DNA from: an uncultured Bacilli bacterium
Lineage (GTDB): Bacteria > Bacillota_I > Bacilli_A > RF39 > UBA660
DNA length: 64,000 nucleotides
Direction of reading: 5' to 3'
Assembly: GCA_934090735.1 (NCBI GenBank)
Contig: CAKOJR010000002.1
Location: forward strand, 22,337 to 86,336
How positions within the stretch are numbered: position 1 is the stretch's first letter; every line of letters begins with the position of its first letter. This document shows, piece after piece, positions 38,876-42,138 of the stretch. Both the position numbers and the translations under genes were made by a program. The notes beneath the pieces are model-generated. The model made no database searches, was not told the DNA's origin, and saw only the letters and a list, made by a program, of their open reading frames with translations.

Positions 38876-39073
38876 ATGTATTACTACGGATACAATGGTG
38901 GTTATAATGGAATGAATACTCCATATAACCCTTGTTACAATACTGGTTATGTTGGAAACACTAATGGTGGATACGGACTAGGTGCTGCTTTATGGATCGT
39001 ATTATTTATTCTTTTAGTAATTATTATTGGTGCTGGATGGTCTTGGGGAAACAACAATAACGGAAACATCTAA
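38876..39073 (+). CDS. small Gly/Asn/Tyr-rich protein with YjcZ-like TM core
   Basis: 65 aa, MYYYGYNGGYNG...GAALWIVLFILLVIIIGAGW..., with an AAGGAGG SD. Confidence 0.6.
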   Translation: MYYYGYNGGYNGMNTPYNPCYNTGYVGNTNGGYGLGAALWIVLFILLVIIIGAGWSWGNNNNGNI

Positions 39074-39099: not shown

Positions 39100-40818
39100 T
39101 TATATTTTATCTGGAACATCTATTGCTAGGATGTCTAGTAGATATTTATTTGTTTCATAAACTAATTTTGTTAAAACTAGTAAGCTTTCTTTTGTTTCTG
39201 CATCTTTTTCAGTAAGAACTTCGCAGTTAGAGTATAGAGCATTAAATGAGCTTGTTAATCTGTATAAGTACTCACATATTTCATTTAATGAGCGTGATGC
39301 GAAAGACTTTTCTAAAGTGTTTCTTAAGTTTATGATATTCATAATAATATTTCTTTCATATGCACTAGATATTTTATGATATGTTTTGTAGTCTGTATCG
39401 CATTTATTTAGTAAGGACTTCATTCTTACTGTGCTATAAAGTAAGTATGTACCAGTTTTACCATTAATATCACTAAATTTTACAGGATCAAAGATATAGT
39501 CACTTGTTCTATTTGGAAGAAGGTCGGCATATTTGATTGCAGCAATTGCTAGATTGCAAGCAAGCTCGTCTTTATCTTCTTCTTTAATATTATCTTTAAT
39601 TACTTTTCTAGTTTCTTCTTTAACTAAATCAATTAGTTTTCTTAGTGGCATTACTCCGCCATCTCTGGTCTTAAATGGTTTTCCATCAGGGCCATTCATT
39701 GTTCCAAAACCAAACCATTCTAAGCTTACATCTTTTGGTACTAAGTTAGTTTTGTACGCTGCTCTAAAGGCTTGAACAAAGTGTAGTTCTTGACGAATAT
39801 CTGTTAGATAGAAATATTTTTGAGCATTAAATCTTTTAATTCTTGAGTAAAGAGTAGCTAGCTCTGTTGTATCATATAATACTCCACCATTACTTTTAAT
39901 AAGAATAACTGGTGGCATTTCTTTTTTATCAGTTTCTTCTTTAACATCAATTATAGTTGCTCCATCGCTAATCTCGGTGTAGTTTCCTTTTTTAAAGTAA
40001 TCTAGAAGTTCTGGAATGTACTCGTCAGCATCTTTCTCACCTTCATATAAATCGAATGTTGCATTAAGCATATGATAGATATCTTTGATGTCATCAATAG
40101 CTATACTTGTAAAGGCTTCATATAGTTCATAGATGCCTTTTTCTTTACTTTGAAGTTTTCTAGTATATTCACGTGCTTCTTCCATGTAAGCTTCATCCTC
40201 TTTAGCTTTAGAGCTTGCTAATGGATAGATGTCGTATAAGTCTTCTAAACTTACTGGGCTTTCTTTTGGATAGCTTTCTAAATTAGGATTAAAGAAGTCT
40301 AAATCTGGATATCTATGTTTAATTTCACAAATGATAAGTCCCATGGGTCTACCCCAGTCACCAAAGTGAACATCACTGATAGTTTTGTAACCTACTGCTT
40401 CACATAGTCTTTTTAGAGCTTCACCAATATTTGGACTACGTAGGTGTCCAGCGTGAAGTGCTTTTGCCACATTAGCTCCACCATAATCTAAGAAGATAGT
40501 TTCGTCAGTATCAATTTTATATGTATTTATATCAAAATTATTATTTACTTCATTCATGTAATTAACAAGGAATTCATCACTTAAAGTTAAGTTTACGAAG
40601 CCATTTGCATTTGTTACATTTTTAAAGTTTTTGTTGTCTTTTAGTTTTTCAACTATTTCGTCTGCAATCATTACTGGGCTTTTATGATATACCCGTGCTA
40701 GATTGAAAGCTCCATTAAACTGGTAATCGCCTAAATCTGGTCTATTACTTACAGTTACCTTAGCGTTTTCATATCCTAAATCACTAAGGATTTTTTCAAT
40801 CTCTAATATTATATTCAT
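39100..40818 (-). CDS. argS: arginine--tRNA ligase
   Basis: 572 aa class I aaRS with a HIGH-type motif (ANVAKALHAGHLRS), the anticodon-binding DALR-type C-terminus, and family-typical length. Confidence 0.9.
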   Translation of the reverse strand: MNIILEIEKILSDLGYENAKVTVSNRPDLGDYQFNGAFNLARVYHKSPVMIADEIVEKLKDNKNFKNVTNANGFVNLTLSDEFLVNYMNEVNNNFDINTYKIDTDETIFLDYGGANVAKALHAGHLRSPNIGEALKRLCEAVGYKTISDVHFGDWGRPMGLIICEIKHRYPDLDFFNPNLESYPKESPVSLEDLYDIYPLASSKAKEDEAYMEEAREYTRKLQSKEKGIYELYEAFTSIAIDDIKDIYHMLNATFDLYEGEKDADEYIPELLDYFKKGNYTEISDGATIIDVKEETDKKEMPPVILIKSNGGVLYDTTELATLYSRIKRFNAQKYFYLTDIRQELHFVQAFRAAYKTNLVPKDVSLEWFGFGTMNGPDGKPFKTRDGGVMPLRKLIDLVKEETRKVIKDNIKEEDKDELACNLAIAAIKYADLLPNRTSDYIFDPVKFSDINGKTGTYLLYSTVRMKSLLNKCDTDYKTYHKISSAYERNIIMNIINLRNTLEKSFASRSLNEICEYLYRLTSSFNALYSNCEVLTEKDAETKESLLVLTKLVYETNKYLLDILAIDVPDKI

Positions 40819-40936
40819 AAAAATCCCTTCCTTAAAGATATGATATCATACTTTTATTATAAAGCAAACCAAAAGTGTGTTTTTTTCTAGATTTTTCGCA
40901 GATTTTAAAAGTCTGGAAGCTAGGTAAATAAAGGGA

Positions 40937-40965
40937 TTGCAATGGTTTTATGAATGTACTATTAT
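40937..40965 (+). promoter_or_regulatory. sigma-A type promoter of candidate toxin mRNA
   Basis: TTGCAA-17 nt-TATTAT. Confidence 0.5.
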
Positions 40966-40973
40966 ACCTACTT

Positions 40974-40998
40974 GAAGAGTACTATGTTAGGCTTCTCC
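40974..40998 (+). repeat. left arm of 25-nt inverted repeat (5' UTR of toxin mRNA)
   Basis: GAAGAGTACTATGTTAGGCTTCTCC. Its reverse complement matches 41176-41188 (13/13) and 41199-41209 (11/11), split by a 10-nt insertion (41189-41198) in place of a single A. Confidence 0.8.
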
Positions 40999-41025
40999 CC
41001 TCTTAAAAAGAAGGGAGTGATGTAT

Positions 41026-41115
41026 ATGAAACAGTTAAAATCTATTTTAGATAAGTTAATGTCCATAATCATCCTTTTAATTATTTTAAAAGTTATAGTT
41101 ATAATTTTTAGATAA
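41026..41115 (+). CDS. 29-aa hydrophobic peptide, candidate type I toxin
   Basis: MKQLKSILDKLMSIIILLIILKVIVIIFR. The GAAGGGAG SD lies 8 nt upstream and can pair with the upstream CTCCCCTC (a possible SD-sequestering hairpin). Confidence 0.45.
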   Translation: MKQLKSILDKLMSIIILLIILKVIVIIFR

Positions 41116-41211
41116 AAAAAAGAAGCTACCTAACATTTTAATGCCTTGTTTAAGTAGCTTCATCAAGAAATACTTGGAGAAGCCTAACTTTCAGGGGTTA
41201 GTACTCTTCCT
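41114..41211 (-). ncRNA. candidate cis-antisense antitoxin sRNA (~100 nt)
   Basis: - strand promoter TTGTAT(41247-41242)-18 nt-TATAAT(41223-41218). - strand terminator GAAGCTAC..GTAGCTTC (41161-41122) plus T8 (41121-41114), which abuts the peptide stop codon. Confidence 0.4.
41176..41209 (+). repeat. right arm of inverted repeat (3' UTR of toxin mRNA / 5' end of antisense RNA)
   Basis: GGAGAAGCCTAAC-tttcaggggt-TAGTACTCTTC. Confidence 0.8.
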
Positions 41212-41259
41212 AAATTTATTATACTACAAAGTATTTATTTTATACAAGTACTTTTCTTT

Positions 41260-42138
41260 TTAGTCAATGTTTATAAGTTCATACTCTCTAGATCCTATGC
41301 CACGTTTTTCAGCTTCTTCTATAGTATGTAATCCGTTTCGGCTATTTACTCTTTCCATAAAGTGTTCTTTTCCTGGATCTTCTGAATTTCTTACTAAATC
41401 AATAGATGCTTCATCGATAGCAGCTGGATCTAAACTTGCTAGAATACCTATATCTTTTAAACAAGGGTCTTCAGCAACAGCACAGCAGTCACAGTCAACG
41501 CTCATGTTACATAGTACATTAATAAATGCCATGTTACCATTAAAATAATTTACAACACTTGATGCAGCATCAACCATTGATTCTAGAAATAAATTTTGTT
41601 CTGGAACATTATCCCATAGTTCTTCTTGTTTAGTTGTTTTGCCAGCAGTATGAATATAAGCTTTACCAGATGAAGAAGCCACACCGATTGATAATTGTTT
41701 TAAGGCTCCACCGTAGCCACCCATAGGATGACCTTTAAAGTGTGATAAAACAAGCATACTATCGTACTTTTCAATATCTTTACCTACATAATTTTTATGA
41801 ATTACTTTACCATTTGGTATGTTTAGTTCAGTGTCACTTTCAGCATCCATAATGTCAACGTCAAAATACTTATTCCATCCATGTTTTTCCATTAAAGCTT
41901 TATGTTTTTCTGTAGTGTTTCTTGCACCATTATATGCAGTATTGCATTCTACGACTGTCCCATGAACGTGATTAATTAATTCACGAACAAATTCTGGTTT
42001 TAAATAGTTTTGATTTCCGTCTTCTCCAGAATGAAGTTTAACTGCTACGTTACCTTTTAATTCTTTGCCTAACTCTTCGTAGATTTTAACTAAACTTTCT
42101 GGACTTAGGTTTTTTGTAAACAATACTTTTGATTTCAT
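41260..42138 (-). CDS. DUF362-domain protein (putative Fe-S binding)
   Basis: 292 aa. The N-terminal pattern LKGNVAVKLHSGE, the Cys cluster CNMSVDCDCCAV, and the overall length match my memory of DUF362 proteins. Confidence 0.55.
   Translation of the reverse strand: MKSKVLFTKNLSPESLVKIYEELGKELKGNVAVKLHSGEDGNQNYLKPEFVRELINHVHGTVVECNTAYNGARNTTEKHKALMEKHGWNKYFDVDIMDAESDTELNIPNGKVIHKNYVGKDIEKYDSMLVLSHFKGHPMGGYGGALKQLSIGVASSSGKAYIHTAGKTTKQEELWDNVPEQNLFLESMVDAASSVVNYFNGNMAFINVLCNMSVDCDCCAVAEDPCLKDIGILASLDPAAIDEASIDLVRNSEDPGKEHFMERVNSRNGLHTIEEAEKRGIGSREYELINID

Follow-up and report, generated by a model that had tools for sequence, protein, structure and literature searches.

Homology is a poor guide to type I toxin-antitoxin systems, which have been described mainly from cultured Proteobacteria and Firmicutes, and beyond those only recently. 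According to the T1TAdb paper, 5'-3' interactions are among the mRNA determinants of such systems. One experimentally probed case is bsrG/SR4, which is carried by the Bacillus subtilis prophage SPbeta. In the bsrG mRNA, nucleotides (nt) 1-35 form helix P1 with nt 232-262, and this helix is directly followed by the terminator (PMC3834814). Structure probing has shown that, when SR4 binds, nt 1-33 of bsrG are left single-stranded, the helix that holds the Shine-Dalgarno sequence (SD) grows from 4 to 8 base pairs (bp), and translation is blocked; the first contact between the two RNAs is made through the terminator loop of SR4 (PMC3834814). Here, an arrangement of this kind is described in a 64,000-nt stretch of DNA (the window; contig CAKOJR010000002.1, positions 22,337 to 86,336) from an uncultured bacterium of the Bacilli. 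In an intergenic gap of 440 bp between argS (39100-40818, minus strand) and a DUF362 gene (41260-42138, minus strand), a predicted mRNA for a 29-amino-acid (aa) hydrophobic peptide converges with a predicted short antisense RNA. With a probability of roughly 0.7, this locus is a chromosomal type I toxin-antitoxin-like module that belongs to a previously undescribed sequence family and works by the mechanism proposed below.

An initial annotation, made from the letters of the window, had likened the module to SR4/BsrG, and the experimentally probed bsrG mRNA does have the same layout (PMC3834814). In both cases the toxin mRNA is about 290-300 nt long and has its SD in a short helix, while its 5' end lies in a long helix with a segment of the 3' untranslated region (UTR) and a terminator follows directly (weak here, at 41228-41261). 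In both, too, a convergent antisense RNA is complementary to the 3' part of the mRNA, including the 3' strand of the long helix. The extension of the SD helix on antisense binding is, for the present module, predicted by folding only (in 29 of 30 copies, and by cofolding). The differences lie mostly in size and in the position of the antisense RNA. BsrG has 38 aa, whereas the peptides of the present family have 24-29. The antisense RNA here has ~97 nt, against 183 nt for SR4; it is confined to the 3' UTR, with the stop codon as its end point, whereas the antisense RNAs of the Bsr families overlap the open reading frame (ORF). Its 5' end coincides with a strand of the helix, which is not so in bsrG/SR4. 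In contrast to the prophage-borne bsrG/SR4, the module is chromosomal, occurs in up to 11 copies and is hosted by an uncultured, small-genome gut lineage. Sequence similarity to BsrG/SR4 was sought in Pfam, NCBIfam and Rfam and none was found, the presence of dedicated BsrG/SR4 models in these libraries being unverified.

By extension, BsrE-G-H/as-Bsr and YonT/as-YonT are related Gram-positive families with an antisense RNA on the 3' side. The module also resembles txpA/RatA of B. subtilis and SprG/SprF of Staphylococcus aureus, in that the genes are convergent, the antisense RNA lies over the mRNA 3' end and duplex-triggered decay is expected. In those systems, however, the overlap reaches the ORF and the toxins are longer, and there is no sequence match in Pfam or Rfam. 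We know of no described case of the txpA/RatA or SprG/SprF type in which the antisense RNA carries a copy of the mRNA 5' end at its own 5' end.

Other well-known systems share single traits with the module. In hok/Sok (plasmid R1) and aapA1/IsoA1 (Helicobacter pylori), as here, the toxin mRNA is closed by long-distance 5'-3' pairing and the SD is sequestered by a cis anti-SD sequence. There, the 5'-3' interaction acts as a lock that opens when the 3' end is trimmed, and the target of the antisense RNA is the 5' part of the mRNA. In the present module, by contrast, the antisense RNA pairs with the helix's own 3' strand, and folding predicts a looser SD when the helix is formed. Neither a HOK_GEF Pfam match nor a mok-like leader ORF upstream was found, and the antisense RNA is in the 3' UTR. 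The par system (fst/RNA II, Enterococcus faecalis pAD1) likewise has convergent RNAs, a small hydrophobic toxin, short repeats at both 5' ends and a hairpin between the genes. The par repeats are direct in the DNA, so that the two RNA 5' ends are complementary and interact outside the overlap, whereas the repeats here are inverted; the RNA 5' ends are therefore alike and compete for the same 3' partner. Also unlike par, the hairpin here has a U-run on the minus strand only, and the peptide gives no match to the Fst_toxin Pfam model. The module is outside the Fst/par, hok/Sok and AapA/IsoA families.

The peptide gene

All the elements that the initial annotation claimed at the argS/DUF362 gap are present in the sequence, each within 1 nt. 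The central one is the ORF of the 29-aa peptide MKQLKSILDKLMSIIILLIILKVIVIIFR, a putative toxin (41026-41115, plus strand; ATG at 41026, TAA at 41113-41115), which has an amphipathic, charged N-terminus followed by one transmembrane helix. It is preceded by the SD GAAGGGAG (41010-41017, plus strand); in all copies of the module the SD reads GGAG or GGGG and lies 7-9 nt before the start codon.

Comparison of related copies shows that the module is multi-copy, and it bears out the ORF, the promoters on the two strands, the long-range helix, the anti-SD hairpin and the terminator of the antisense RNA. In total, 61 distinct full-length copies were collected; 30 distinct copies were used in the promoter and fold comparisons and 31 in the antisense alignment. 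The ORF is intact in 59 of the 61 and falls into length classes of 29, 27 and 24 codons (for example MKQLKSILDKL...IIFR; MKQIKEILQLLCILV...IKY; MKSIKELLQLIIILVVFLIILKYI). Counted among the intact ORFs is that of copy L167_501, which has lost its stop codon and reads through to 36 aa; the other two copies are pseudogenes, one with a frameshift and one with a nonsense codon. Pooled pN/pS is 0.27-0.49 within each length class. From such comparisons, the short hydrophobic ORF is coding and under purifying selection. The peptides have no match in Pfam or NCBIfam even at E values up to 10, in keeping with the earlier remark that the peptide belongs to no named toxin family. An exact look-up of five of the peptides in a collection of 15 billion proteins found none; thus, they are called by no annotation pipeline.

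Transcription of the peptide mRNA would start from a promoter called by a promoter scan, TTGCAA-17-TATTAT (40937-40965, plus strand). Its -35 and -10 hexamers are positionally fixed in the 30 copies, while the spacer varies. About 20 nt upstream of the -35 hexamer lies the near-palindrome CAGATTTTAAAAGTCTG (40899-40915, no strand assigned), which is kept in all copies of groups 1 and 2. It marks the left edge of the conserved module and the left boundary of every copy, since the sequences to its left have no relation between copies. Within the 30 copies ATTTTAAAAGTCTG is almost invariant, the exceptions being two with GTTTG/GTTGG and one without the final G. The near-palindrome may be an UP element, an operator or a binding site for a regulator.

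At its other end, the mRNA has a probable weak intrinsic terminator that was absent from the list of the initial annotation (41228-41261, plus strand): AAAGUAUUU-loop-AAGUACUUU followed by UCUUUUU, which overlaps the -35 element and spacer of the antisense promoter. A 9-bp stem is predicted at this position in most copies of groups 1 and 2, with compensating variants such as AAAGUGCUU/AAGCACUUU.

Predicted structure of the peptide mRNA

The predicted mRNA of ~290 nt (~40974 to 41261) folds with -74 kcal/mol (z = -5.5 versus shuffles), and its minimum-free-energy structure contains a long-range helix that joins the two ends. The 5' strand of this helix is element A, GAAGAGTACTATGTTAGGCTTCTCC (40974-40998, plus strand), which forms the mRNA 5' end; the 3' strand is element B' in the 3' UTR (41176-41209, plus strand), the complement of element B (see below). 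The 24 bp are split into 11 + 13; the interruption of the repeat is a single T in A, and in B it is a hairpin loop of 10 nt. In B', UUUCAGGGG is bulged out of the helix (mean probability of being unpaired, 0.65). An RNAalifold consensus of 30 copies recovers the same 5'-3' helix.

Variation among copies largely respects this pairing. When the 24 pairs are tabulated over 26 A/B' haplotypes, 581 cells are Watson-Crick, 23 are G.U and 9 are mismatched. Three pairs are fully compensated (GC/AU at position 6, UA/CG at position 7 and GC/AU at position 19), and copies of the G023 group have one additional G-C pair. The intermediates are mostly G.U in the mRNA sense; at position 7, for example, there are 13 cases of U.G versus 0 of C.A.

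A second, local structure is the anti-SD hairpin (40995-41017, plus strand), in which CTCCCCTC (40995-41002) pairs with the SD GAAGGGAG (41010-41017). It is the predicted fold in each of 34 distinct 5'-UTR haplotypes, with energies of -7 to -14.5 kcal/mol, and its compensatory variants include CUCCUUUC/GAAAGGAG, CUCCUCUU/AAGAGGGG and CUCCUUUU/GAAAGGGG. The first four bases of CTCCCCTC (CUCC) are also the last four of element A, and are thus common to the anti-SD hairpin and the long-range helix. RNAalifold also paired the SD with a sequence inside the ORF, UCAUCCUUU. This candidate was rejected in favor of the 5'-UTR hairpin, because the latter covaries, whereas the pairs of UCAUCCUUU are mostly G.U and uncompensated. 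To judge from these patterns, selection acts on both mRNA structures, the long-range helix and the anti-SD hairpin, as well as on the terminator of the antisense RNA.

The antisense RNA

The predicted antisense RNA, the putative antitoxin (~97 nt; 41210-41114, minus strand), is complementary to the whole 3' UTR of the mRNA and ends at the stop codon. Its promoter, read from the sequence, is TTGTAT-18-TATAAT (minus strand; -35 at 41247-41242, -10 at 41223-41218). The -10 element is TATAAT in 30 of 30 aligned copies, and the -35 element is TTGTAT or TTGAAT in nearly all. The RNA consists of a 5' stem-loop formed by element B, a variable linker of 12-16 nt and a terminator. Element B, GAAGAGTACTAACCCCTGAAAGTTAGGCTTCTCC, had been placed 1 nt off by the initial annotation, which was right about its presence; it occupies 41209-41176 on the minus strand. 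The loop of the 5' stem-loop, CCCCUGAAA, holds a YUNR-like CUGA that is kept in 30 of 31 aligned copies.

The intrinsic terminator (minus strand; hairpin 41122-41161) has the stem GAAGCUAC/GUAGCUUC plus inner pairs and is followed by U8, encoded by a T8 run (41121-41114) that overlaps the AA of the peptide stop codon. Six pairs of its stem are changed on both sides in 10-14 of the 31 sequences. An AGG in the loop (~41143-41147) is nevertheless invariant in all 31 (alignment A3), though the stem of one group is wholly replaced; it reads CCU in the hairpin that follows the stop codon in the mRNA. By analogy with SR4/bsrG, this AGG is a candidate first-contact loop. A search of Rfam gave nothing beyond chance-level matches to unrelated families.

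It had been pointed out that both RNAs begin with almost the same element. The likeness is real, and it is not an independent feature, since the antisense RNA covers the 3' strand of a helix that is formed by the mRNA 5' end itself. The A/B arrangement as a whole is far beyond chance, because the same pair of elements flanks the same ORF seven times in the genome of the window and in 61 distinct copies overall.

A copy of the antisense half alone is present in the same genome (C1:167431-167523), and again in two other species (G021:C8:14903-14996 and G022:C13:25629-25723). It has a promoter, a variant of element B (GAAGAATACTAAC) and its own, diverged terminator, and is without the toxin half. 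As the same sequence variant is found in three species, it is possibly a retained orphan antitoxin, and may be one that cross-protects.

Distribution of the module

A search for further copies of the 25-nt element, proposed in the initial annotation, found seven full modules, with two tandem pairs, and the one antisense-only copy in the genome of the window (1.06 Mb, 29% G+C, in an assembly that is 69% complete). A covariance model of the antisense RNA (R1) was run on 24 species of the genus; the 40 copies that it detects fall in 6 of them, and 18 species gave none. When 185,579 species genomes were scanned for the exact pattern, the element was found only in the five other carrier species of the genus (15 stretches), the genome of the window itself being possibly outside that scan. 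In metagenomes, the module is present in 46 contigs, mostly labelled human gut. Collections of phages, plasmids and viral contigs (IMG/VR) gave no module matches.

The conserved unit of ~330 bp extends ~75 nt to the left of A and ~50 nt to the right of B, and the ends of the unit are not inverted repeats. Modules are intergenic and lie beside differing housekeeping genes (argS, tyrS, uvrC, nusA/infB); the neighbors differ at all seven sites, and no obvious mobile islands surround them. At the site in the window, the identity of the DUF362 neighbor is given by a Pfam match (E = 1.6e-46). Beyond argS, at 38876-39073 (plus strand), there is an ORF of 65 aa, rich in Tyr, Gly and Asn at its head and hydrophobic at its tail, which has a weak Pfam match to YjcZ_2 (E = 0.003, under the curated cut-off).

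A module upstream of argS occurs only in the genome of the window and in its closest relative, G015; in ten other species of the genus there is a gap of 46-189 bp at this place. The minus-strand RNA points toward argS, and an argS leader or T-box was considered. This candidate was discarded: there is no Rfam match, the neighbors at the seven sites are unrelated, and the module is absent upstream of argS in those ten species. Alignment of the two argS sites (L073 versus L074; alignment A1) shows flanks and A and B arms that are ~97-100% identical, whereas the interior in G015 (anti-SD loop, ORF and terminator) is of a different subtype and is a pseudogene (MR*). Nearly identical arms and flanks around an interior of another subtype indicate that paralogues recombine through the conserved A/B arms, in a form of cassette exchange.

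In the G023 group the modules form arrays, such as a tandem array of four with a period of ~505 bp (L066, contig JAUNFS010000023). These arrays have an extra conserved spacer of ~140 bp between the units, with its own inverted repeat, TAACGTTAGCTG...CAGCGTTA.

Relatives outside the genus

The covariance model also gave weak matches in two other genera of the same bacterial family, G067 and G129. In G067 (L171, G067:C3:183700-185500) there are three tandem units with a 358-bp period, which encode the peptide MKEKDIIILFQGVLILLLVFIIILMILIK in a hydrophobic ORF of 29 aa. The promoter of each unit is TTGACA-17-TATTAT; a 5' and a 3' element pair with each other (13 + 12 bp), and an anti-SD hairpin begins where the 5' element ends. 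On the opposite strand, a hairpin and T-run abut the stop codon, followed by a convergent stem-loop RNA; the antisense promoter is ~30 nt further out, which adds a GAAA-tetraloop hairpin at the RNA 5' end.

In G129 (L172, G129:C1:93700-94800), there are eight matches to the peptide model, seven of them strong, and six have the same 24-residue extent as MFKNLEKLLNRIIVILILLFLDKE, a clear homologue. The layout is again that of the family; the mRNA terminator, for instance, overlaps the antisense promoter, and a CCCCCUG loop is present. Thus G067 and G129 have the same architecture with different repeat sequences, and the differences between A and B are again G.U in the mRNA sense. Peptide-profile searches covered 150 genomes of the order and, in the family, 250 genomes from 214 genera, and found no credible carrier beyond these two; the remaining matches are marginal, lying inside large proteins or without a small ORF that is preceded by an SD.

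Proposed switch and alternative explanations

In the proposed mechanism, a local hairpin of the nascent mRNA would pair the SD with CUCCCCUC and block the start of translation. Once the 3' UTR has been made, element A would pair with B' (24 bp) and withdraw CUCC from the anti-SD hairpin, loosening the SD. Antisense RNA, when present, would probably make contact at its two loops, zip up with the 3' UTR and displace element A, of which its own 5' end is a copy. CUCC would then be back in the SD hairpin and translation kept off, and the resulting duplex of ~99 bp would be a likely substrate for RNase III, leading to degradation of the mRNA. Once the supply of antisense RNA ends, translation of the helix-closed mRNA would follow, and the peptide made from it would cause membrane damage. 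The parts of this scheme that we infer are that the RNAs are transcribed, that the peptide is toxic, that RNase III cleaves the duplex and that the switch runs in this direction. Cofolding, suggested in the initial annotation as a check, predicts that the antisense RNA forms a 99-bp duplex with the mRNA (ddG -105 kcal/mol), with the 5' UTR in the extended SD hairpin.

At the sequence level, the module has a hydrophobic coding ORF of <60 aa with its own SD and a cis-encoded antisense gene with its own promoter and terminator, as type I systems do. The type I reading of the initial annotation is upheld by the conserved ORF, the promoters on both strands, the covarying antisense terminator and 5'-3' helix, the multi-copy and tandem occurrence, the toxin pseudogenes and the antisense-only orphans. 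The peptide might instead be a regulatory or accessory membrane protein that is antisense-regulated and not toxic. Many small hydrophobic proteins of bacteria are harmless, and the copies sit beside housekeeping genes rather than in obvious mobile islands. This seems improbable, however, since tandem and multiple copies, layered translational repression, a dedicated cis-antisense RNA, toxin pseudogenes that retain the antisense gene and orphan antisense genes together make up a typical type I signature, and since an accessory peptide would be expected to have a fixed partner gene, whereas the neighbors differ at every copy. Far less probable still is a non-coding intergenic repeat of the MITE or REP type, with A and B as its inverted repeats and with the ORF and promoters coincidental. 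A multi-copy unit of ~330 bp with inverted repeats, and cassette exchange between paralogues at the argS site, would fit such an element. Yet A and B are internal and the unit ends are not inverted repeats; the ORF is open in 59 of 61 copies with pN/pS <0.5; the SD spacing and both promoters are positionally conserved; and the phage, plasmid and viral collections hold no copies. A MITE in particular was ruled out by the internal position of A and B and the conserved interior ORF. That the inverted repeat might be a generic intergenic repeat unrelated to small ORFs, a possibility raised in the initial annotation, is contradicted by the A/B pair flanking the same ORF at every one of the seven full copies.

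Granting the module and its RNA pair, the long-range helix could still act in the opposite sense, as a hok- or AapA1-type lock, which is how the initial annotation had read it. The full-length mRNA would then be inert and stable, it would become translatable after 3' trimming of B', and the antisense RNA would mainly trigger decay. The best-studied Gram-negative systems do use 5'-3' pairing as a lock, the full-length fold leaves the SD largely paired (probability of being unpaired, 0.06-0.26), and a helix that buries both RNA ends would stabilize the mRNA. The predicted energies run the other way. Blocking the 3' UTR raises the cost of opening the SD-to-AUG region by a mean of 3.4 kcal/mol over that of the free full-length mRNA, with a rise in 29 of 30 copies; the nascent transcript, too, has a higher cost than the free mRNA closed by the helix. 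If B' is removed or blocked, access to the SD falls in 28-29 of 30 copies. Furthermore, helix and anti-SD hairpin cannot both have CUCC, trimming would take away the very segment at which the antisense RNA is aimed, and bsrG, the closest experimentally probed analogue, works in the opposite way. Because CUCC is common to the two structures, opening of the SD is cheaper with the helix than with an antisense-occupied 3' UTR, and bsrG/SR4 provides a precedent, the helix is probably not a hok-type lock, and a module built around one is unlikely. A bsrG-like dual action, in which the antisense RNA would both tighten translational control and trigger decay through the duplex, is favored on folding predictions and analogy.

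Several points weigh against the type I module with its proposed switch. The cost of opening the SD is high in every state (5-13 kcal/mol), and the mRNA therefore possibly needs an extra activation step, such as processing. Toxicity is suggested only by the shape of the peptide. The terminator of the mRNA is weak, and is weak or absent in the G023/G017 group, so that the mRNA 3' end is uncertain. On the minus strand, the -35 element of the copy in the window matches at only 3 of 6 positions. For this reason, and because the terminator loops are longer than 8 nt, a simple promoter and terminator scanner called only the plus-strand promoter and missed the minus-strand promoter and both terminators, which rest on positional conservation and covariation instead. 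The strand asymmetry of single mismatches was considered as proof that pairing occurs in the plus-strand RNA and was put aside as suggestive but not clean: A.C mismatches occur in several helix haplotypes, including a lineage of seven copies, so that the asymmetry is supportive and not decisive. Finally, the copies are related, and the pair counts therefore overstate the number of independent events.

Implications

On the comparative evidence, the module represents a well-supported new sequence family of a well-known kind. It leaves the field's view of type I systems unchanged, and it adds a family from uncultured human-gut Bacilli whose genes have never been called by standard annotation. The comparative support is unusually good, and the dataset (61 copies, three peptide length classes and two distant relatives) fixes the RNA architecture without experiment. 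The presence of this architecture suggests that antisense binding at the 3' end of an mRNA, with remodelling of the 5' end and a tighter SD helix as its result, is a design that recurs, rather than an oddity of a single prophage gene in Bacillus. At ~330 bp, with both promoters and terminators, the module is self-contained and could serve as a portable RNA switch.

More tentatively, with the odds somewhat against it, this family may represent a minimal strand-displacement switch of a naturally modular kind, in which the antisense 5' end copies the mRNA 5' end, out-competes it for its 3' partner and so returns CUCC to the anti-SD hairpin. If this is true, an RNA of ~97 nt that lies within the 3' UTR controls translation initiation ~200 nt upstream without touching the ribosome binding site. 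Three sequence-diverged lineages of uncultured gut Bacilli with small genomes seem to have retained such a strand-displacement design, with up to 11 copies in genomes of ~1 Mb. So many copies hint at a function of importance to reduced genomes, for example, in stabilizing genome segments or in aborting phage infection.

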